A stretch of 64,000 nucleotides of DNA from positions 40,210 through 104,209 of the forward strand of contig JAXDQW010000039.1 of assembly GCA_034667665.1 (NCBI GenBank), written 5' to 3'. Of this stretch, positions 371 to 10,258 are shown one piece after another. The notes beneath the pieces are model-generated. The model ran no database searches. It was given only the letters and a program-made list of their open reading frames with translations, and was not told where the DNA came from. Source of the DNA: Chthoniobacter sp. GTDB taxonomy: Bacteria; Verrucomicrobiota; Verrucomicrobiia; Chthoniobacterales; Chthoniobacteraceae. The position numbers were made by a program, and so were the translations under genes. The stretch's first letter is position 1. Each line of letters starts with the position of its first letter.

Positions 371-3300
371 CTACACTGCTTCCGCCCCCCAAAGCGTGAA
401 CGACCCTTGGAAGCCCTTGAACTTCACGTTGGGATACTTAATCCAGCGCACCTCAGGATTGATCGTGGCACGGCGACGATCGACGCTCCGCTTTACTTCA
501 TCACTGAATCGAATGCCGTCCCCCTTTGCGTGAGACATTACTCGCGCTGTGAAGTTGAGATTTTGGCCCCAAGCGTCGCCGAATCCCCATCTGGCGCTGT
601 CGTCGATGTTTACCTCTCCGGAATGAACACCCACGCGAATACGCACCGCAGCATGGCCAGTCTCGCCATAAAGCGCCGTTGCAAAGTTCGCTGCGTTTTG
701 AGCGTCGTGAAAAAGCGCGAGGATGCCATCGCCTGTGTTCTTAACGAGAAATCCACGTCCCTGACGGATAAGGAATATTGCACGGGCGAAGTGGCCATCC
801 CGGATCTGTCCCCAAGGCGTTTCGCCCAAGTCGTTGCAGAGCTTCGTGCTATCCACAATATCCGTGAATACAGCGGCAACCGAAAGAACTGTTGCTCCTC
901 CCGTCCATTTCTTAAGCGCGTTCTTCTCGATTGCTGTCATGGAAACGAGCGCCTTTTCGGCCTCCACTTTGGCACGTTGAGCGGCAATGGCATTGCGAAC
1001 CTTTTTCGGGGCAGCTTGATTGTCGTCTTGAAATTTCTCCGGATTTATCTGCCAGTCCTGAAAGAACTCCTTTAACGCCGGGTCGCTGCGCTCCAACATC
1101 ACGAAAAGGCGATTGACCGCCTTCAAATCGCGAACTCGCAAGATTACCTTAACACTACCGCGCCGAGTTCCGACAACCTTAAGCTGCTCGGACGCTATAC
1201 CGAGTAATGTCGCAATTTGCTGGCGAATGGCTTCCAATTCGATTTTACTCAAAGTCGGCACCTCCACCGGAAGCACTATTCGCTGGCTCGCCCGCGTGGA
1301 TTCCTGAGCCGCACCAGAAACACTGAGTAAGACCGTCGTAACCTGCTCAACCAGTTGAACAGGATCCATTTCTGCCGGTCTCCGACCTAGGATGCCGGCG
1401 ACAAGATTCGCCAGCGGCCGCGGGTTGTCTGACTGCAGTTCTCGCAGATCCACCCACCCGAACGATTCCAAAAAAGTGGGCAGCTTCGGTTGCCGTCGGG
1501 CTCCAGGCAAGAGAACAGGGATTACGGCTGAACCCCGCTTGACAAACTTGCGGATAAAAGCCGCCGCTTCTTGGTCCTGCCATGGACCGATACCTCTGGC
1601 TCCGACACATACCACCGCTGACTTCACACGCGCGATCGCTTGCTGAAGCAGCTTTTGCCACGGGCGCCCCGGCACCAAATCCCAGATGTCGAGCCAGGGG
1701 CGGATCCCGACGCTGAGCAATCCTTCGGCCAGTGTCACGACCTGCGCACGATCCTTCGTATTGTAGCTTAAGAAAACATCGTATTCGCCAAGACGATTCT
1801 TGCCTTCGATCGCCGCCGCCGCGAGCTGTCGGCGGCGCATCACTTCGGCGTCCGCGTCCATTTGCCGCTCGCCCTTTCGAGCGTTGTCATTCTCAAGCAT
1901 CATCAGGTCGAAGAGCGGAGTTCGCTCGTCACAATTCGGGCATGCAATGTCTGCCTTACCCAACTTCAGCCGGTTCTCGATTAGGGCTTCATCCCACTCG
2001 TATCCGCAAGCCCGGCAGAAATATAGTCTGTGCGTCACGATACTGCCCGGTGTGGCCTTCGACTCCAAGTGCTGACGCACGAAGCGTAGAAAAGCGTGCT
2101 GCTCATCCACTCGCGGATTATCTTCGAAATACACACTCATCGTGCCCTGACCCGGTGCCCGCTGGCGTTCATCGAGCACGACGGAACAACGACCTCCTGC
2201 CTTCGCCTCGTAACAGGCCGCGTCGCGGAAAAACTCGGTCTTTGTAAACTCCCTATGATGCGCGAGACGCACGACCAAGGTAGTGAATATGGAGCGTGTC
2301 GCTCCCTCAAAATCGAACGCGATGCCCGGCGCGTTGCGCCGTGGGTAGGGGGCTTCTCGGGTGTATTCCGAGGGGAAGACCAAGTAGTCGCCATCTTGGG
2401 GTCCCCCTTCTTCGATCCGCTCTCGTAGCGCAATGTCGTGGCCCAGCAACCGCTCTACTGCCACGGCCAACACCCGCCGCTCGTGTTCCCGGTGGGCGAT
2501 CCGCTCCTCCCTAGGAAGACCCAGTTTCCCCGCCACGACGTCACTTTCCAGAAGATGACCGATGCCACGCGGGTCCTCTTTCCGGGCAGCGAGCAACAGA
2601 GCGGAGGCATATCCATCGATGTATTCCGGTTGGAGCAGCACAAACTCGGCTTCCTCTTCCTCCGCCTTGAAAGCGCGGAACTTCAGCAGTTCGACGAATC
2701 CCGCCGCTTCCAGGCGGTCCACGCACGTCCGGAAATCAGCAAAGGTGGCTTTACGCAGCCAGCGATCTGAAGATTCAGCGCATCGTTTGAAGAGATCGTC
2801 CACCCGTTCCACCGGCGCCTCGTCGCCATCCGCCTTTTCCTTCTGAAGGAATTGTCTGATCGATACGAACAACTGATTGGAGCCGACCTCCTCCAACTCG
2901 TCCCACCGAACTGCGCCACGGATCGCCTCAGCCAGCTTCCGAACACCTTCGCCCGTTTTCGAACTGGTTTGAAAGACGCCTGCGAAATCGTTTTGGTGAG
3001 CGAAGCGCTCCAATTCCTCGGGACTGACTGCGAGGCCTCCACGATCAATTCGCGCCACGACGAGAAACTTGGTGATAGGCACGGCGGAACGTGCTTGGGC
3101 AATGGCTCGTGCCCAATATTCTACGACGCCGAGGGGATCAGTCTCGCTCCGAGCATCGACCAGCACGAGCGCCACGGCAGCTTGGTCGATATTGAGCTGA
3201 TGGACTAGACGGTATCCCGGTTGCCCCGCCAAATCCCAGAGCATGATCTCTCGTATCTGTCGACGCCCAAACCCCAACGAGACCTCCGTTTGTTTGAGTG

Positions 3301-4387
3301 ACCAAATGCGCCGAGCATGCGTCGAATCCGTCGGTTGAAACTCCTCGCCAGCCAATACCATGCCCAAGGCGGACTTTCCGACACCAGTGTCGCCCACCAG
3401 CACCACTTTGGCATTGCGGTAACTGATGGAGTCTTGGGCCAACTGGTTCTCGTCAAGCCGCGCGAAATCGATGTGCCAGACTCGGATCACCTCTCCGTCT
3501 TGTCCCTCGGCAACCGTGAGCAGGTGCGTGCCGGCCGGGCTGAAGGCGACGCGCGTATCGGCCGCCCAGTGGGGGATCGCGACAGGAAGATCAGCCATAC
3601 TCCGACCTGACTCAAGTTCCCAAATGCGAGCCGTGTTGTCCGCCGAATCGGTGGCCGCCCAGCGTCCGTCCCTACTGATGGCGAGTCCGACGACGTTGCT
3701 GTTGTGGCCTTCCAAGGTTCGCAGCAGTCTCCCGCTGGATGCATCCCAAACGCGCACGGTCTTGTCCTCGCACGCGGCCACAACCAATCGGCCATCAGGC
3801 GTCATTGCCACTGATGAGACGGAGCCGAGACCGACTTCCATCGTCCGAAGAAGCCGGCCAGAAACCAATTCCCACACACGGACCTTTCCATCCCATCCGC
3901 CGGAAATGATCGAATTCCCATCCGGCGTGACAGTCACGGAACAAACCGTGCCACCATGCCCTTCGATGGCTCGGAAGAGCTTGCCGGAGTTCAGTTGCCA
4001 AACCCACACCATTCCGTCGCTGCCGCCGGCAACTACCGATCGGCCATCAGGCGTGACCGCAACCGAAGTTACAAGGTCGCGGTCGCCTTCCAAGTCTCGG
4101 AGGAATCGGCCGGATTCGAGGTCCCACACAGACATCGCCCCGTCTTCACCTCCAGAAATCACCCAGCGTCCATCGGGCGTTACTGCGACTGCCAAGATAA
4201 CGCGAGGACGATTCTTCATCGTCCGCATCAGGCACCCGGATTCCAGATCCCAAACACGAACTGTGTGATCGCTGCCCCCAGAAATCACCGTCCGGCCATC
4301 GGATGTCACAACGAGGCTCTGAATCCCTTTCTGGTGACCGACGAGTTCGAGAACTGCCGTGATGCCCGTCGGGAGACTACCGCTCAC
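371..4387 (-). CDS. Multidomain protein of 1338 aa: WD40 propeller, Roc-type small GTPase, COR-like region, Zn ribbon, TIR domain, class III nucleotidyl (adenylate-type) cyclase.
   Basis: ORF track; GTG start preceded by GAGGAG. Seven 'DG..(V/I)..G..D..(V/I)W(D/E)L' blades. G1 GDTGVGKS (aa 332-339), G3 DLAGQ (385-389), G4-like ARID (445-448), G5 SSK (475-477). CxxC at 791-794 and 816-819. TIR motifs 'YDVFLSYNTKD' (869-879) and 'GPWQDQE' (934-940). Cyclase motifs 'FTDIVDST', 'KNTGDG', 'RVGVHSGEV', 'GDAWGQNLNFTAR'. Confidence 0.88.
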   Translation of the reverse strand: MSGSLPTGITAVLELVGHQKGIQSLVVTSDGRTVISGGSDHTVRVWDLESGCLMRTMKNRPRVILAVAVTPDGRWVISGGEDGAMSVWDLESGRFLRDLEGDRDLVTSVAVTPDGRSVVAGGSDGMVWVWQLNSGKLFRAIEGHGGTVCSVTVTPDGNSIISGGWDGKVRVWELVSGRLLRTMEVGLGSVSSVAMTPDGRLVVAACEDKTVRVWDASSGRLLRTLEGHNSNVVGLAISRDGRWAATDSADNTARIWELESGRSMADLPVAIPHWAADTRVAFSPAGTHLLTVAEGQDGEVIRVWHIDFARLDENQLAQDSISYRNAKVVLVGDTGVGKSALGMVLAGEEFQPTDSTHARRIWSLKQTEVSLGFGRRQIREIMLWDLAGQPGYRLVHQLNIDQAAVALVLVDARSETDPLGVVEYWARAIAQARSAVPITKFLVVARIDRGGLAVSPEELERFAHQNDFAGVFQTSSKTGEGVRKLAEAIRGAVRWDELEEVGSNQLFVSIRQFLQKEKADGDEAPVERVDDLFKRCAESSDRWLRKATFADFRTCVDRLEAAGFVELLKFRAFKAEEEEAEFVLLQPEYIDGYASALLLAARKEDPRGIGHLLESDVVAGKLGLPREERIAHREHERRVLAVAVERLLGHDIALRERIEEGGPQDGDYLVFPSEYTREAPYPRRNAPGIAFDFEGATRSIFTTLVVRLAHHREFTKTEFFRDAACYEAKAGGRCSVVLDERQRAPGQGTMSVYFEDNPRVDEQHAFLRFVRQHLESKATPGSIVTHRLYFCRACGYEWDEALIENRLKLGKADIACPNCDERTPLFDLMMLENDNARKGERQMDADAEVMRRRQLAAAAIEGKNRLGEYDVFLSYNTKDRAQVVTLAEGLLSVGIRPWLDIWDLVPGRPWQKLLQQAIARVKSAVVCVGARGIGPWQDQEAAAFIRKFVKRGSAVIPVLLPGARRQPKLPTFLESFGWVDLRELQSDNPRPLANLVAGILGRRPAEMDPVQLVEQVTTVLLSVSGAAQESTRASQRIVLPVEVPTLSKIELEAIRQQIATLLGIASEQLKVVGTRRGSVKVILRVRDLKAVNRLFVMLERSDPALKEFFQDWQINPEKFQDDNQAAPKKVRNAIAAQRAKVEAEKALVSMTAIEKNALKKWTGGATVLSVAAVFTDIVDSTKLCNDLGETPWGQIRDGHFARAIFLIRQGRGFLVKNTGDGILALFHDAQNAANFATALYGETGHAAVRIRVGVHSGEVNIDDSARWGFGDAWGQNLNFTARVMSHAKGDGIRFSDEVKRSVDRRRATINPEVRWIKYPNVKFKGFQGSFTLWGAEAV
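374..895 (-). other. Class III nucleotidyl cyclase catalytic domain, aa ~1165-1338.
   Basis: Metal-binding D1176 (FTDIVDST) and D1220 (NTGDG). Specificity pair K1216 and D1271. Transition-state N1278 and R1282 (WGQNLNFTAR). Confidence 0.85.
1388..1786 (-). other. TIR domain, aa ~868-1000.
   Basis: 'EYDVFLSYNTKDRAQV', 'AVVCVGARGIGPWQDQEAAAFI', 'SAVIPVLLPG'. W936-x3-E940 sits where the catalytic Glu of NADase TIRs is found. Confidence 0.8.
1928..2020 (-). other. Zn-ribbon (CxxC-x21-CxxC), aa ~790-820.
   Basis: 'YFCRACGYEWDEALIENRLKLGKADIACPNCDERTP'. Confidence 0.6.
2033..2890 (-). other. COR-like (C-terminal of Roc) helical/winged-helix region, aa ~500-785. Assigned by position and composition only.
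   Basis: About 290 aa directly after the Roc-type G domain, as in ROCO proteins. I cannot point to a diagnostic motif. Confidence 0.4.
2903..3415 (-). other. Ras/Roc-like small GTPase domain, aa ~325-495.
   Basis: P-loop 'VVLVGDTGVGKSAL', switch II 'WDLAGQ', 'VVARID' (degenerate NKxD, as in Roc domains), 'TSSKTGEG'. Confidence 0.8.
3473..4360 (-). other. WD40 beta-propeller domain (7 blades), aa ~10-305 of the 1338-aa protein.
   Basis: Seven repeats ending VRVWDL, MSVWDL, VWVWQL, VRVWEL, VRVWDA, ARIWEL and IRVWHI, each preceded by (T/S)PDG or SxDG. Confidence 0.85.
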
Positions 4388-4513: not shown

Positions 4514-4921
4514 TTACGGCAGAACGGGTGGTTCCTGCACCGCTTTTCGGATGCGGGTCCACATCGTTCGCCGCTTAGGCTCGTTCGACTCAAGCACTTC
4601 ACGCCAGCCGAGTTCCACCAAGTAAATCAGCACGAAGTGGCACAACACGTTGATCGGATCGGCTTTTGGCGACTTGTCCCGCACCCATGCTGCCGCTCGG
4701 GCAAAATCGTCTGCCGTTGATCCAACGTGAATGATGCCGCTGACCAAGGGCAGGCTTCCGGTGATGAACATGGCGTATGCTTGCTTCTGGGCAGTGACGC
4801 CTGAATAATTTTCTTGGAGCCGTTCGAGGATAATCTGCTTGTTTTCCTCGATGAAACGATCCACGCGCAGCAGTTCTTCGACCACGTGTGTTGCTGGCTT
4901 GAACTCTTGAAGTGCTCGCAT
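4514..4921 (-). CDS. Hypothetical protein, 135 aa, no recognisable domain. Lies 126 nt upstream of the TIR-cyclase gene and is co-directional with it.
   Basis: ORF track; ATG start; ordinary amino-acid composition; no competing ORF with better support. The region looks more AT-rich than the core genome. Confidence 0.55.
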   Translation of the reverse strand: MRALQEFKPATHVVEELLRVDRFIEENKQIILERLQENYSGVTAQKQAYAMFITGSLPLVSGIIHVGSTADDFARAAAWVRDKSPKADPINVLCHFVLIYLVELGWREVLESNEPKRRTMWTRIRKAVQEPPVLP

Positions 4922-4977
4922 GTCGCTAGTTGATTCGATGAAAGGGGTTGTTTGGACGGGTGATCAGGTGAAAGGCG

Positions 4978-6201
4978 CTAAACGAAGTGGCAAGTCAGTG
5001 GGCGGTCAAGCACCTCATGGAAGCATGTGCCGGTCCGAACATCAAAATGTTCCTGATGGCCACGCCCCCTGCCTGCCGCACTGCGCATGAAACGGTGTAG
5101 GCAGGTAGCGGAGCGACAGGGAAGCGTTTTCCAAGAAAATTGTTTACGCTGATTCCCGGGCTCAGGCGATTCTAGATGGGGATACGTAACGGCACCGAGG
5201 CGTGCATTCGTCGCAAACCCGTAACCCTGATACGGGGAAAACCGCGAGCCGATGGCAAACCACTCTGGCGCCTCCGAAAAGCGATGGAGTTCCGGCGTAA
5301 AACTCAGATCCATGTGCGCAAAAAAACGCGGCACAAAGGCAAGTTGGATTGCCCCCGTGCCGGTGAGTGCTGGAGCTGGGACTGGTTTCACAAGCAATTC
5401 TTCTAGAAGATAATCTGTCCCTGCTAGCAAGCTGATTATCCGGTAGAATTGATAGCGCTCCCGACTTTCGGGATCGCCTGGAGCGATGTCAAAGGCTGCC
5501 GACGCAAGGGTGATGCTAGCACGAACCGGACCGCTCGATTTTGAGACGAGTTCATACGGCTGGTCAAACAGCTGCACACGCTGGTAGGTTGGGGCACTCG
5601 AACCGGGAAGCTCAAGCCTCAATTCGTCAACCTGCATGCAGCGTTTTTCGGGGTCGTGGCCTTCCCATCCCTTGAGGGCTGCCGCGAAGGCATCGAGCAT
5701 TTCAAGTCCGTCCAGCCGAACGCTTGTGGCCGCGCCGGCATACCAGTTCTTCGCGGGGTCGCCGGGTGAAGGTAGAAGATTGAAAGACGCTGCCAACCGT
5801 TCATTGCTCAGCTGCACGACCCGTGGTTGCCCATTTGGATCACTGTCAAGCACTTTATAGTGCGCCTTTTCCTCCTGTTGCGATCTAGAACTGCGACGTC
5901 TGAGCGTAAAAATGACAGAAGGGGCGGAGCCGTTGACAGGCTCGATCTTGCGCGGCAAAGAAAAAATCAACGTGTCCCGCGCTGGGTCAACTTGGCAAGG
6001 GATCTCCAGGTCCGACTCGTCCACCAAGGCGACTTCGTCCGGGCCGATGCCCATGCGTGCTTGGATAGGGTGCCAAGCAACCGATGCCCATCCGCCGCGA
6101 GGATAGCTGGAGTGATTGAATACGAACAACTGGTCGGGCATCGATGAAAGTTGGGGCCGGGAGAGCGATCCAGTGGGCACCTTTATCTGTTCCGCCAGCA
6201 C
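4978..6201 (-). CDS. Hypothetical protein, 407 aa from the GTG at 6201, or 387 aa from the ATG at 6141 ('MPDQLFVFNHSS...').
   Basis: ORF track; co-directional with the 135-aa ORF, 56 nt away. No family recognised. The Cys/His/Arg-rich last ~50 aa look atypical, so the 3' end may be degraded. Confidence 0.55.
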   Translation of the reverse strand: MLAEQIKVPTGSLSRPQLSSMPDQLFVFNHSSYPRGGWASVAWHPIQARMGIGPDEVALVDESDLEIPCQVDPARDTLIFSLPRKIEPVNGSAPSVIFTLRRRSSRSQQEEKAHYKVLDSDPNGQPRVVQLSNERLAASFNLLPSPGDPAKNWYAGAATSVRLDGLEMLDAFAAALKGWEGHDPEKRCMQVDELRLELPGSSAPTYQRVQLFDQPYELVSKSSGPVRASITLASAAFDIAPGDPESRERYQFYRIISLLAGTDYLLEELLVKPVPAPALTGTGAIQLAFVPRFFAHMDLSFTPELHRFSEAPEWFAIGSRFSPYQGYGFATNARLGAVTYPHLESPEPGNQRKQFSWKTLPCRSATCLHRFMRSAAGRGRGHQEHFDVRTGTCFHEVLDRPLTCHFV

Positions 6202-6646
6202 GCAGCAAAGGACTTTCTAAACTTTTTCATTTCGGACATCTTTTGAACGATCCGCAACCGTCGGAGCGAGTTTACGACGTTCCGTGAAAACCCACAAAGG
6301 GCGCAAGTGATCCTGCACCGAAAGGGCGCCACCTCCACGGGTTTCGGCGTGCTCGGCATCATCCCTGGAGGTGGCTTCACAGGGCTCTGTCGTGCGGAAT
6401 GGCGGATTTGAGCAAGTCACTGCAGTCGGGCTTCCAGAGATCTGATATCACTAAAACGCCACGGCGGGAGCGGAATTGGCCCTCCTGTCGAGCGCCGTCA
6501 ATTCGGCCCTCGTCCTCCTCCGACCGTCAAGCCGCCGTCCGCCACAAAAGCGGCCATGGGCGCTGAGTCGGGCGAACACCTCCGGCGTGAAGAGATGGTT
6601 CCGCAGGGGTCGAGGCCCGTTGCCGTGGATTCGATTCGGGGCACCG

Positions 6647-8443
6647 TTAGCCGCCAGCACCAAGCCGATTCGATTCCGTCCACGCTTCAAGCTCGGGTGG
6701 TAGAGGGTCGCGCCCACTCCACTTGCGTGTGCCATCCGGGGTGGGTGCTATGACAAGCGTTCTAGAGGCTCCCGTTCCGACTTCTTGAAAAGCAAGCGCT
6801 TCGGGTCTGTTTCCGATCGTAATCACCCAGCGAGTGACAGCGTTCGAAAATGTCACGGCGAGAAGCGGCTCCGCGCTGTTGATTCTCACCCTGTAGTCTG
6901 GTCCCTGCCACTCGCGCCGAAGACCTCGTGGATACAAGTCGATTCTCGCGATTTTTCTGTGGATCTCATCACGAAGGCGGATTCGACCCTCGCGGTCAGT
7001 CGCCTTCAGGGCCAACTGTTTAAGCCTCGTCGCGTTATTCTCGAACTCTTCGATGGCCTGACGCCTAATTTTGAAATCTTCTTCCTTCAGCGCGAGTCGC
7101 CCTTCCGCCTCAGAAAGATCCGTCTCGAGTTGACCAAGTCTTTTCACCAACGCAGCCGGTGGATCGCTGGTCGTTTGGATCGCGGCTAGAACCTTCTCGA
7201 CCCCATCGCGCAGACTCTGGACCTCCGACACGATGCTCGCCAGCTCTTCGTCGTCCCCGGTGGCGCCCGATTCCTCACCTTCACTCAAAACGCGCTTCCA
7301 GTCGAGTTCGTGAACGAAACGCAGGAAGAGGTTTTCGAAGTGAGGATATTTCCAGGTGCAGGGCGGTGCGCTTGGGTGCGTTCGTCGCCGATCTGAAACG
7401 AGGTATTTCCATTTTCCTTCCCCGCGTTTGCGAGTGCCCTTGTCCACGAATCGCATGACGGCACCGCTATATCCATCGAAAGCGATTTTGCTGAAAAGAT
7501 TGGAGACCTTGTCGCCGATTGGCCCGGGAACGCTCCGGCTTCGACAATTGACACTGCGGAAAACCTTCTCATCGATAATTGCGGGAAAATAGCCGGCGAT
7601 GGGATCCCCGTCCGGAATCCTCTTCCCTTCAACCATGCGGTGCGGCTGGAACTCCCCGAGAACTGCGCGGTTCGCCAGAATTTTTTGGATGTAGCTATCG
7701 TGCCAGCCGTTGCCACGACGCTTGCCCTTGCCCCATGGTTCGATCCCTTCCTGGTTGAAGCTTTTTGCTATCGAACGCTTGCCGTGACCCGCATCAGCGA
7801 GAGCGAACAGCCGGCGCACCAAACGCACGCGCTCCGGGATCTTTTCGAAAGCGGTTCGCGTTGCGTTCAGGGCGAGCCATCCAGGCGCCTGCGCTGTCAG
7901 TTTTCGTTCTCCTATCGCCCTGCGCTTGTTCACCCAAGCGGCGGAAAGGCGTTTCGATTTCGTCGCCGATTCTTCATGGGCTCTCGCCATGATCACCAAG
8001 CTCATCATCAGGTTTCCCATGTTCTGGTCGAGCGAGCCTTTGCTGTAGGTCATCTCGTCGGCGAGCGTGACCACAATCACCCCAGCGTTGATGATTTCTA
8101 GGAACGTTGGGATCGCTTCGGTCATTTGCGCTCTGCTCAATCGGTCCAACGACTCAAGGAGCAAATATGATCCAGGGGGGACCTTCTTGGCGGAGATGGC
8201 CTCCAAAAACGTCGCGAGCGCTCCGGTTGTTTTGTTTTTTCCGCGGAATGCGGAAACGCCCAGATCATGGAGGTTCAGCTGGTCGTCCAGAACAAGACCG
8301 TGCTCTCGAGCATAACGCTCGGAGATCTCAAGTTGCCTGCGCAAGCTGTCGCCCTTCAACTGCTCCGGAGTTGAAAACCGGATGTAGCTGAAGGCCAGGG
8401 GTGGCCGGCTCGGCTTGATGGATCTTGTAGGAATTGCTGACAA
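6647..8443 (-). CDS. Large serine recombinase (serine integrase), 598 aa.
   Basis: N-terminal resolvase-type catalytic motif 'AFSYIRFSTPEQLKGDSLRRQ', 'LLLESLDRLSR', then a long recombinase/coiled-coil C-terminal extension. Apparent TTG start. Sits at the extremity of the inserted DNA. Confidence 0.9.
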   Translation of the reverse strand: MSAIPTRSIKPSRPPLAFSYIRFSTPEQLKGDSLRRQLEISERYAREHGLVLDDQLNLHDLGVSAFRGKNKTTGALATFLEAISAKKVPPGSYLLLESLDRLSRAQMTEAIPTFLEIINAGVIVVTLADEMTYSKGSLDQNMGNLMMSLVIMARAHEESATKSKRLSAAWVNKRRAIGERKLTAQAPGWLALNATRTAFEKIPERVRLVRRLFALADAGHGKRSIAKSFNQEGIEPWGKGKRRGNGWHDSYIQKILANRAVLGEFQPHRMVEGKRIPDGDPIAGYFPAIIDEKVFRSVNCRSRSVPGPIGDKVSNLFSKIAFDGYSGAVMRFVDKGTRKRGEGKWKYLVSDRRRTHPSAPPCTWKYPHFENLFLRFVHELDWKRVLSEGEESGATGDDEELASIVSEVQSLRDGVEKVLAAIQTTSDPPAALVKRLGQLETDLSEAEGRLALKEEDFKIRRQAIEEFENNATRLKQLALKATDREGRIRLRDEIHRKIARIDLYPRGLRREWQGPDYRVRINSAEPLLAVTFSNAVTRWVITIGNRPEALAFQEVGTGASRTLVIAPTPDGTRKWSGRDPLPPELEAWTESNRLGAGG

Positions 8444-8486
8444 CGCAAATTGAACGTAGCTGACCGCCGGGGTGAATCAACCACAA

Positions 8487-9143
8487 TATGAGCAGATTAT
8501 GCGCTCCGGACACGGCGACTTCGATGGCCCGTTTCGCGTGGTGCTGGCCGCGCACTTCGGAAAAGTCCACCTCGTAGGACTGGTGCCGCTGGAAGAATTC
8601 CGTGACATCCTCCCGGGTGGGCGTGAGCTGTCGCTCCCCGGTCAGGAATTCGAACGTCTCGCGCAAGGTGCGCACGCCAAACACGTCGATTCCTTTCACC
8701 ATCGCGGCTTCGCGGGCATTGGCCTCGGGAACGATGACGGCGCGGCGGCCTTGCTTGCGAGCTTCGAGCGCGATAGGCAGGACACCTTTGACCGGGCGCA
8801 CCTGCCCGGTGAGCGCGAGTTCGCCGACGAAGGAATACTTTTCCACCTCGAGCAACTCGACCTCCATGCCGACCGCGATCATGGCCAGCGCGATCGGCAG
8901 ATCGAAGCTCGGGCCCTCTTTTTTGACGTCGGCCGGCGCGAGATTGATCGTGGTCCGCCCCCGCGGCCAGTGATAGCCGCTATTGGAAACCGCGGTGGTC
9001 ACGCGGTCGCGGCTTTCTTTGACTGCGACATCGGGCAAGCCCACCACGACGATGGCGGGAAGTCCCGAGGCGGCATTGACTTCGATCTCGACCTCGAAGG
9101 CGTCCACGCCATAGACGGCAGCCGAATAGACTTTTGCCAGCAC
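8487..9143 (-). pseudogene. comM: 5' fragment (~219 codons) of a comM/yifB-type Mg-chelatase-like AAA+ ATPase gene, truncated by the insertion.
   Basis: 'VVGLPDVAVKESRDRV', 'TINLAPADVKKEGPSFDLPIALAMI', 'FSEVRGQHHAKRAIEVAVSGAHNLLI', then nonsense ('LWLIHPGGQLRSICVV') exactly where Walker A GPPGxGKT is expected. The rest of the AAA+ domain is missing. Confidence 0.85.
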
Positions 9144-9379: not shown

Positions 9380-10258
9380 ATGAACTATAAATCAGGCGAA
9401 GACTCCGACTCGGGGATCAAAATCTACCTCCGCGAAATCGGGCAAATTCCGCTGCTAACGCCCGAGCAGGAGATCGAACTCGCCGCCAAAATCAAAAAGG
9501 GCGACAAGGCGGCCCGCTCGCTCATGATCCGCTCGAATCTGCGGCTGGTCGTGAAGATCGCCCACGACTACGCGAATCTGGGCCTCCCGCTTCTCGACCT
9601 CATTTCCGAAGGCAACATCGGGTTGATGAAAGCCGTCGAGCGCTTCGATCCGGCCAAGGGCGGCAAGCTCTCCACCTACGCCGCCTGGTGGATCAAGCAG
9701 TCGATCAAGCGCGCCCTGGCGAACCAGTCGAAGACGATCCGTCTCCCGGTCCATCTGGTGGACAAAATCTCCAAGATGCGCCGCGTGGCGCTGCAGATGA
9801 GCGAAGAACTTGGGCGCGAGCCCACCGACGATGAGCTGGCGGAAGAAGTCGGCCTGTCCGCGGGGAAAATCTCGCAGCTCAAGACCGTCTCGATTCGCCC
9901 GGCCTCGCTCGATGCGCCGATCAGCGATGACGACTCCACCGAGTTCGGCGAGATCGTCGGCGATCTCGAGGCGTTGACGCCGTTCGAGATGCTGCGGGAT
10001 CAGAACCTGCGCGACGAAGTCGGCGACCTGCTGCGGGTCCTCGATGACCGCGAGAAGAAGATCATTTTCTCGCGCTTCGGTCTCGATGGCGGCAAGGCCA
10101 AGACGCTCGAAGAAGTCGGCAAGAAGTTTGGCGTGACCCGCGAACGCATCCGGCAGTTGCAGAACATCGCGCTGATGAAGCTGCGCCGGGCATTGCAAAA
10201 GAAGGAGAAGCCGATCGAGGCGCTCCTTCCCTCGCACCAGGCGGACTTCGAAGAATAA
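9380..10258 (+). CDS. RNA polymerase sigma-70 family factor (RpoD/RpoS-like, 292 aa, no long region 1.1).
   Basis: '[23 protein letters not shown]', '[11 protein letters not shown]', '[18 protein letters not shown]', '[14 protein letters not shown]', '[28 protein letters not shown]'. Confidence 0.92.

Follow-up and report, generated by a model that had tools for sequence, protein, structure and literature searches.

Gene organization of the locus

The 64,000-nucleotide (nt) stretch of Chthoniobacter sp. DNA considered here (contig JAXDQW010000039.1; the window, in whose coordinates all positions are given) carries at its left end a single stop-free open reading frame (ORF) on the minus strand, 371-4387, which translates into a protein of 1,338 amino acids (aa) to which all residue numbers refer. 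The encoded chain consists, in this order, of a WD40 propeller, a Roc/Ras-like GTPase, a region of ~300 aa at the COR position, a CxxC zinc ribbon, a TIR domain, a TRADD-N-like domain, a helix and a nucleotidyl cyclase domain, and it is this C-terminal cyclase and its place in the chain that form the subject of the analysis (Table 1). The locus looks like an integrated element in a comM-like gene, with its left end beyond the window, based on the lower guanine-plus-cytosine (GC) content of 56-59% across 1-10 kb versus 62-65% in the remaining window, on the presence of a serine recombinase, and on the truncated comM/ChlI-like ORF (8328-9143) that the recombinase abuts and that matches the Mg_chelatase profile over no more than its first 28 positions.

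Table 1. Coordinates of the multidomain gene, its domains and the other genes of the apparent element in the window.
Feature	Coordinates	Strand	Residues	Basis or remark
Multidomain gene	371..4387	-		GTG start with GAGGAG ahead; stop codon at 371-373
WD40 beta-propeller, presumed ligand sensor	3458..4360	-	~10-310	PF00400, E 1.4e-51, six repeats
Ras-superfamily Roc-type small GTPase	2918..3415	-	325-490	PF08477 (Roc) 53.7 bits, cut-off 27; PF00071 (Ras) 50.5 bits
Conserved region of ~300 aa at the COR position of ROCO proteins	2036..2917	-		Identity to orthologs 47-88%
Zinc-ribbon-like CxxC...CxxC	1898..2035	-	C791/C794 and C816/C819	Four cysteines kept in all orthologs; weak zinc-ribbon Pfam matches
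TIR domain	1403..1786	-	868-995	PF13676, E 1.1e-22; candidate catalytic Glu940 in WQDQE
Small alpha/beta TRADD-N-like domain, possible adaptor	1043..1270	-	~1040-1115	Sub-threshold PF20694; model predicted local distance difference test score (pLDDT) 75-90
Helical linker	893..1042	-	1116-1165	Model of the C-terminal 338 aa has helices at 126-145 and 152-162
Class III nucleotidyl cyclase catalytic domain, short-arm Ma1120/Rv1900c type	374..892	-	1166-1338	Profile, PDB and fold matches; conserved residues
135-aa upstream gene	4514..4921	-		Accompanies the multidomain gene only in the two closest relatives
387-aa upstream gene	4978..6141	-		All-beta supersandwich, without a nucleotide-sensor fold
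Large serine recombinase, right end of the apparent integrated element	6647..8443	-		PF00239 and PF07508

Identity and catalytic residues of the cyclase domain

The interval 374-895, corresponding to the C-terminal ~174 residues, had been predicted to encode a class III cyclase with a full catalytic set and a Lys/Asp specificity pair, and profile and structure comparisons support this assignment. With the C-terminal 338 aa scanned alone, the PF00211 match spans aa 1169-1305 (profile positions 8-158 of 183; E 3e-9) and scores 37.2 bits, compared to a gathering score of 21.9 bits, and a phmmer search against all PDB chains returns Ma1120 from Mycobacterium avium (E 1.4e-13) and Rv1900c/LipJ (E 1.4e-10). 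A profile combining the family with distant cyclases matches 52 distinct PDB sequences across class III, including LipJ/Rv1900c (7e-52), Ma1120 (1.5e-43) and Rv1264 (4e-12), as well as the two enzymes against which the original prediction proposed an alignment, CyaC (1wc0; 1.9e-11) and Rv1625c (1yk9; 5.8e-5). An AlphaFold2 model of aa 1001-1338 has a mean pLDDT of 77.7, with the cyclase part mostly at 80-93, and Foldseek superimposes it on the catalytic domains of Rv1900c and Ma1120 with template modelling (TM) scores of 0.88-0.89. Judged from its sequence, the tail is a complete class III cyclase domain of the short-arm type that is closest to Ma1120 and Rv1900c. Orthology with LipJ itself was considered and rejected, as the score against the LipJ NCBIfam model is 54 bits and the cut-off is 800.

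The six catalytic residues of the original prediction lie at the numbers and in the contexts that it gave, as read from the codons, aligned with Ma1120 and compared among orthologs. They comprise the metal-binding aspartates D1176 (VFTDIVDS, codon 860-862) and D1220 (NTGDGILA, codon 728-730), the substrate-specifying K1216 (FLVKNTGD, codon 740-742) and D1271 (GFGDAWGQ, codon 575-577), and the transition-state residues N1278 (QNLNFTAR, codon 554-556) and R1282 (FTARVMSH, codon 542-544), and the domain also contains the phosphate-binding motif RIRVGVHSG at aa 1249-1257. In the alignment with Ma1120 both metal-binding aspartates fall on their equivalents, VKNTGDG of the window protein lies over VKSQGDG, and GFGDAWGQNLNFTARV lies over G-DDLFGRNVAMAARV, which pairs K1216 with K101, D1271 with D157, N1278 with position 164 and R1282 with R168. 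The roles of these four residues are assigned from this alignment and from the published mutagenesis study of Ma1120, which names K101 and D157 as the pair that deals with the substrate, gives the transition-state role to the Arg at 168, R168, and points out that Ala164 takes the place of the Asn carried by other cyclases (PMC4215837). The canonical Asn is present in the window protein and absent from this closest solved relative.

The residue mapping rests on the Ma1120 alignment and on canonical spacing. In the window protein the substrate-specifying Lys precedes the second metal-binding Asp by four residues, the specificity Asp is followed by the Asn at +7 and the Arg at +11, and the two metal-binding aspartates are 44 residues apart. 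The same four spacings are found in Rv1625c, whose corresponding residues are D256/D300, K296, D365, N372 and R376. The location of all six residues within one chain is compatible with a homodimer.

The segment between the second metal-binding Asp and the specificity Asp is short, comprising 51 residues in the window protein, 45 in most orthologs and 52 in Ma1120, and the domain was therefore grouped with the short-arm mycobacterial-type enzymes. Ma1120 and Rv1900c/LipJ are thus its best matches in both sequence and fold, with a similar short segment and, in Ma1120, the same Lys/Asp pair; however, they are only 25-28% identical to the window domain and occur alone or behind an alpha/beta hydrolase, whereas the window cyclase sits behind a WD40-GTPase-TIR chain. 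A six-residue insertion, SARWGF (578-595, aa 1265-1270), is located just ahead of the specificity Asp. It is shared only by the window protein and the relatives nearest to it (L084 and P0001/P0002, where P0001 is the copy of the gene at locus L003), is missing from the distant orthologs and forms a low-confidence loop in the model.

Conservation and predicted activity of the cyclase domain

The ortholog set consists of L084, a soil-type relative with 75% identity overall, L004 from Desulfobulbia, L005 from Lentisphaeraceae, P0125/L085 from an Armatimonadota metagenome-assembled genome (MAG), and four metagenome fragments; L084, L004, L005 and L085 are intact and full-length. A search with the C-terminal 338 aa returned 16 close relatives at E <= 6e-44, the next match reaching only 5e-15, and in the alignment of these relatives D1176, D1220, D1271, N1278 and R1282 do not vary at all, whereas K1216 has a single exception in P0012, in which the Lys is displaced by one residue. 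All six residues are identical in nine orthologs, whose cyclase domains are 39-77% identical to that of the window protein, and the motifs FTDIV(D)ST and R-x-G-x-H-x-G are likewise invariant. The lower end of this range, 39-47%, is occupied by the orthologs from other phyla (L004, L005 and P0125) and by two partial relatives, and retention of the six residues at such identities favors an enzymatic function over a structural remnant. The domain is likely to be catalytically competent.

A silent domain, serving only as a dimerization or nucleotide-binding module, is accordingly given very little weight. Inactive cyclase domains do occur in conflict systems and have been proposed by Kaur et al. 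for some fusions to vWA components (PMC7159879), and the cyclase domain is less conserved than the TIR and Roc domains of the same chain, but invariance of the six residues and of both motifs down to 39% identity would be unexpected for a purely structural module.

With respect to substrate, K1216 and D1271 form the Lys/Asp pair of Ma1120 (K101 and D157). Adenylyl cyclases canonically carry this pair, and the closest relatives with solved structures also belong to that group, making it plausible that ATP is preferred; the domain probably uses ATP and would then produce 3',5'-cyclic AMP (cAMP).

Other domains of the chain

The WD40 propeller is the fastest-evolving domain of the protein. Its identity to L084 is 58%, compared to 77-88% for the Roc, COR-position, zinc-ribbon, TIR and cyclase domains and to 73% and 64% for the TRADD-N-like segment and the helical linker, both of which are short, and in comparison with L004 and L005 it falls to 31-36% where Roc and TIR remain at 66-71%. 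Divergence of this degree is what a sensor engaged in an arms race is expected to show. In the Armatimonadota ortholog the propeller is shorter and the whole protein measures 1,175 aa. The GTPase retains intact motifs, with the P-loop GDTGVGKS at aa 332-339 and the switch II sequence DLAGQ at aa 385-389, both of which are kept in all aligned orthologs.

The TIR domain, whose presence on the same chain had been part of the original prediction, is confirmed by its Pfam match and by the position of Glu940, which falls on the glutamate of the WxxxE motif when the domain is aligned with the NADase AbTir. Glu940 is kept in the nine aligned orthologs that cover the position and is replaced by Thr in the partial relative P0006. 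The helical linker ends in the motif KWTGGA (893-910, aa 1160-1165), just ahead of the first cyclase strand. This motif is invariant in the 17 closest relatives, reads EWLGAK or EWLRAK in Armatimonadota-type orthologs, and is absent from ordinary class III cyclases.

The cyclase as an addition to a large WD40-GTPase-TIR family

With the GTPase-to-TIR core (aa 320-1000) as query, at least 1,485 proteins were retrieved at E <= 1e-10, and the best 120 are all below 1e-157. Most of these relatives, which come from Planctomycetota, Acidobacteriota, KSB1, Actinomycetota and others, are WD40-GTPase-TIR proteins of ~1,000 aa or GTPase-TIR proteins of ~700 aa, and they mostly end at the TIR domain, with PF00211 found only in the top few. 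The cyclase is therefore an add-on to a very large WD40-GTPase-TIR family, a point that the original prediction had overlooked, and the cyclase-bearing forms are a small subclade scattered over several phyla. One GTPase-TIR member of the parent family, P0217, carries Effector-associated domain 7 (EAD7; PF19960, E 6e-23), which connects this family with the adaptor-based conflict systems described by Kaur et al.

The distribution of the cyclase-bearing gene is mobile and patchy, with orthologs in Desulfobulbia, Lentisphaeraceae and Armatimonadota MAGs residing in unrelated gene neighborhoods. A search of a plasmid collection yielded only generic cyclases of 25-35% identity, and the gene was present in only one sequencing run, from soil-metagenome DNA. 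Two ortholog copies are split by clean frameshifts with undiminished similarity on either side, one at 9959-9965 inside the TIR domain of L001, and two at 8353-8355 and 9986-9989 in L003.

These observations bear on an alternative in which the protein is a GTPase-regulated adenylyl cyclase that feeds the ordinary cAMP network, with the TIR and WD40 domains as mere scaffolds and without a role in conflict. The nearest solved cyclases are indeed physiological mycobacterial enzymes, cAMP is a common bacterial messenger, and soil bacteria have many class III cyclases. However, the TIR domain retains its catalytic Glu, the gene is part of a low-GC island that also holds a serine recombinase, its occurrence is patchy across phyla with unrelated neighborhoods and broken copies, the WD40 domain evolves fastest, and one family member carries EAD7. 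A housekeeping role is thus considered improbable.

Relation to known conflict systems

The closest published architecture is that of the AP-GTPase-COR proteins with a C-terminal TIR domain, predicted to be conflict systems by Kaur, Iyer, Burroughs and Aravind in 2021 (PMC8195603). The LRR-AP-GTPase-COR-TIR proteins of that study are, like the window protein, encoded by a single gene and comprise an N-terminal repeat sensor, a Roc-type GTPase and then a TIR domain, with variable C-terminal effectors. They differ in having an LRR rather than a WD40 sensor and in their COR domain, which is undetectable by Pfam in the window family, whereas the window protein has a zinc ribbon ahead of the TIR domain, and a TRADD-N-like domain and a cyclic nucleoside monophosphate (cNMP) cyclase after it. 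In the published source table LRR+AP-GTPase+COR+TIR occurs 567 times and WD40+AP-GTPase 0 times, and no AP-GTPase entry has a cNMP cyclase (PMC8195603). The divergence of the WD40 domain, the added cyclase and the EAD7-bearing member all fit the sensor-switch-effector logic of these AP-GTPase systems (PMC8195603).

cNMP cyclases are recurrent signaling domains in conflict systems (PMC7159879), and in clades associated with immunity they are joined to NTPase switches (bioRxiv 10.64898/2026.08.12.744502). A 2026 preprint describes Pucsar cyclases that make cGMP, an uncharacterized 'immune clade 1' fused to STAND NTPases, and a subclade predicted to prefer ATP (bioRxiv 10.64898/2026.08.12.744502). 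The 'immune clade 1' cyclases and those of VMAP/vWA-MoxR systems resemble the window protein in the fusion of a cyclase to an NTP-dependent switch and repeat sensors, and are predicted to be immune (bioRxiv 10.64898/2026.08.12.744502; PMC7159879). However, the switch of 'immune clade 1' is a STAND ATPase, whereas the window chain has a Ras-like GTPase and a TIR domain, and nSTAND3 matches the window chain only at E 0.02, over the P-loop.

In Pycsar, BcPycC recognizes pyrimidines through Y50/D94/R97 and EaPycC through F100/R142/Q144, and separate effectors carry a cNMP-binding domain. Pycsar and Pucsar share with the window protein the pairing of a class III-type cyclase, which requires a homodimer, with a TIR NADase in a conflict-type locus. 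They differ in that cyclase and TIR are separate proteins joined via a cNMP-binding domain, whereas the window protein is one chain without such a domain, and its specificity residues are the canonical purine (ATP) pair, unlike those of BcPycC and EaPycC. The comparison with Pycsar made in the original prediction is not supported. The PADLOC PycC models match only part of the domain (E 1.2e-4 to 4.4e-4, 17.7-19.8 bits), the 50 best fold matches include no Pycsar cyclase, and no cyclic nucleotide-binding (CNB)-TIR or 3TM effector is adjacent, either among the window genes at 4514-8443 or beside the seven orthologs with context. Membership in Pycsar was rejected on these three grounds. The fusion is a rare version of a kind of system already known computationally rather than a new category, and the residue set alone is ordinary for a cyclase; the interest resides in the fusion and in the missing receiver.

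Neighboring genes and the search for a receiver

The upstream 387-aa and 135-aa genes have no match in Pfam or PADLOC. The model of the 387-aa protein (pLDDT 91.7) is a beta supersandwich like those of galactose mutarotase and the C-terminal domains of GH38 mannosidase, and the protein has ~60 relatives that are common in filamentous cyanobacteria. Some of these are fused to an N-terminal TIR domain, and one has a PNP fragment and a genuine TRADD-N domain (E 8e-10). Elsewhere (L090 and L091) the relatives occur without a cyclase-bearing GTPase-TIR gene nearby, and a gene of 143-156 aa directly follows in the position of the 135-aa gene. As the pair stands beside the multidomain gene only in its two closest relatives and relatives of the 387-aa protein occur without it, the two genes were treated as a neighboring module, and they are probably a separate two-gene module of the conflict type. 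The family of the 387-aa protein is tied to conflict systems, with an adaptor-mediated link to the large protein being possible. The two genes were also considered as the missing receiver of the cyclic nucleotide and rejected in that role, based on the fold of the 387-aa protein, which is not that of a nucleotide sensor, and on the restriction of the pair to the two closest relatives.

The original prediction had noted that no cNMP-binding effector is visible in the part of the element inside the window, and this is borne out by the domain searches, in which no cNMP-binding, CARF or SAVED domain was found in the large protein or in the three other in-window genes of the element. Its suggestion that a receiver might be encoded further left is not supported by the relatives. 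Nucleotide similarity to the two closest of these spans just the multidomain gene and the 135-aa and 387-aa genes, and ends at 361 (L003) and 378 (L084), no more than 10 bases from the stop codon, and the genes downstream differ in all seven relatives with context, where they include a TPR lipoprotein, short-chain dehydrogenases, a kinase/pyrophosphorylase, an IS200-type transposase, small ORFs and an aminotransferase fragment. With similarity ending at the stop codon and differing downstream genes, the relatives thus provide no evidence in favor of a conserved receiver on that side; the left flank of the window itself lies outside the sequence compared. Within the window, a 49-codon ORF on the plus strand (27-176) converges on the multidomain gene and ends at a weak terminator-like hairpin (157-174). 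Read on the strand of the multidomain gene (174-157), the hairpin lies ~200 nt beyond the stop codon. A promoter and terminator scan gave site counts that are not above those of shuffled controls.

These results weigh on two further explanations of the cyclase. In the first, it is only the signal generator for a separate cNMP-binding effector encoded elsewhere or to the left of the window, as in Pycsar and Pucsar, and the TIR domain is a parallel or unrelated output. The intact catalytic residues are in keeping with this, cCMP/cUMP and cGMP are established activators of TIR and membrane effectors, and one related subclade is predicted to use ATP; on the other hand, no cNMP-binding gene adjoins the cyclase in the window or in seven relatives, conserved synteny stops at the stop codon, and the similarity to PycC models is marginal with Ma1120/LipJ being closer. 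Such an arrangement is therefore regarded as unlikely, though less so than the second explanation, an intramolecular loop in which the cyclic nucleotide made by the tail binds to the TRADD-N-like domain, the COR-position region or the TIR domain of the same chain and amplifies or times activation of the NADase. In favor of such a loop, no external receiver is linked and the cyclase is always fused behind the TIR and small domains, in the same order in all orthologs, but no known cNMP-binding fold (CNB, GAF, CARF or SAVED) was detected anywhere in the chain at E <= 1, and the parent family works without a cyclase, which leaves the loop decidedly doubtful.

A proposed single-chain sensor with two nucleotide-based outputs

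The preferred reading, to which we assign a probability of roughly 60%, makes the class III adenylyl cyclase the terminal output of an immune-type (conflict) sensor formed by one chain, which would combine NAD+ cleavage with cAMP synthesis and whose WD40-GTPase-TIR architecture is of a kind predicted to act against phages. The computations establish the domain order, the intact catalytic and switch motifs, their conservation, the addition of the cyclase to a family that otherwise mostly ends at the TIR domain, the patchy mobility of the gene and the lack of a linked cNMP receptor; sensing of a ligand, activation through oligomerization, the use of ATP, a role in immunity and the function of cAMP are inferred. 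In the proposed mechanism, the fast-evolving WD40 propeller would bind a ligand derived from an invader, and the Roc-type GTPase together with the conserved region that follows it would act as a nucleotide-dependent switch of the oligomeric state. Bringing the chains together would allow the TIR domains to form an NAD+-cleaving site, and the same step would place two cyclase domains into the head-to-tail homodimer required by class III enzymes, with two active sites per dimer, converting ATP to 3',5'-cAMP. The cAMP would serve as a second output, either signaling to receptors elsewhere or acting on receptors recruited via the TRADD-N-like adaptor. Alternatively, cAMP synthesis may be an ATP-consuming effector activity beside the loss of NAD+, or may provide feedback on the same complex.

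Several observations weigh against this interpretation. No cNMP receptor is linked to the gene in any of the eight contexts (the window and seven relatives), and the cyclase domain is, as discussed above, not the best-conserved part of the chain. The searches did not confirm a COR domain after the GTPase: a Pfam COR match is absent in 15 family members and the family profile, run against the PDB, matches only Rab-like GTPase chains over the GTPase part, with no ROCO chain among the 60 best matches listed. The putative adaptor is matched by PF20694 (TRADD-like_N) in six of nine members, all below threshold, with a best E of 0.0028 and a score of 16.5 bits in the window protein versus 23.7 required. 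The Lys/Asp rule is not absolute with respect to substrate, as Ma1120 retains residual guanylyl activity (PMC4215837), and one clade of uridylate cyclases needs a Lys for cUMP synthesis (AnPycC K104), possibly at the equivalent position. In addition, the frameshifts in L001 (one) and L003 (two) may be errors of long-read assembly, or may reflect decay or very recent pseudogenes.

A more specific version of the proposal holds that cAMP is a dedicated immune output of a GTPase-switched, NAD+-cleaving single-chain receptor that has no cNMP-binding effector, and that it acts on its own oligomer or on unlinked effectors recruited through TRADD-N. This stronger form is speculative and, on present evidence, unlikely. 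If true, it would extend cyclic-mononucleotide immunity from cCMP, cUMP and cGMP to cAMP, and to a fused architecture without a separate receptor.

The significance of the domain depends on which reading holds. If the cyclase is merely another regulated adenylyl cyclase, its presence amounts to an ordinary domain annotation. The family is small, with several intact orthologs from different phyla, and is amenable to standard assays. If the tail does make cAMP on activation, a single polypeptide would unite both main nucleotide chemistries used in bacterial immunity, NAD+ cleavage by a TIR domain and synthesis of a cyclic mononucleotide, and would place them behind a Ras-like GTPase switch reminiscent of eukaryotic ROCO proteins. 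The question would then arise of how cAMP could serve as an alarm in cells in which it already runs normal physiology.

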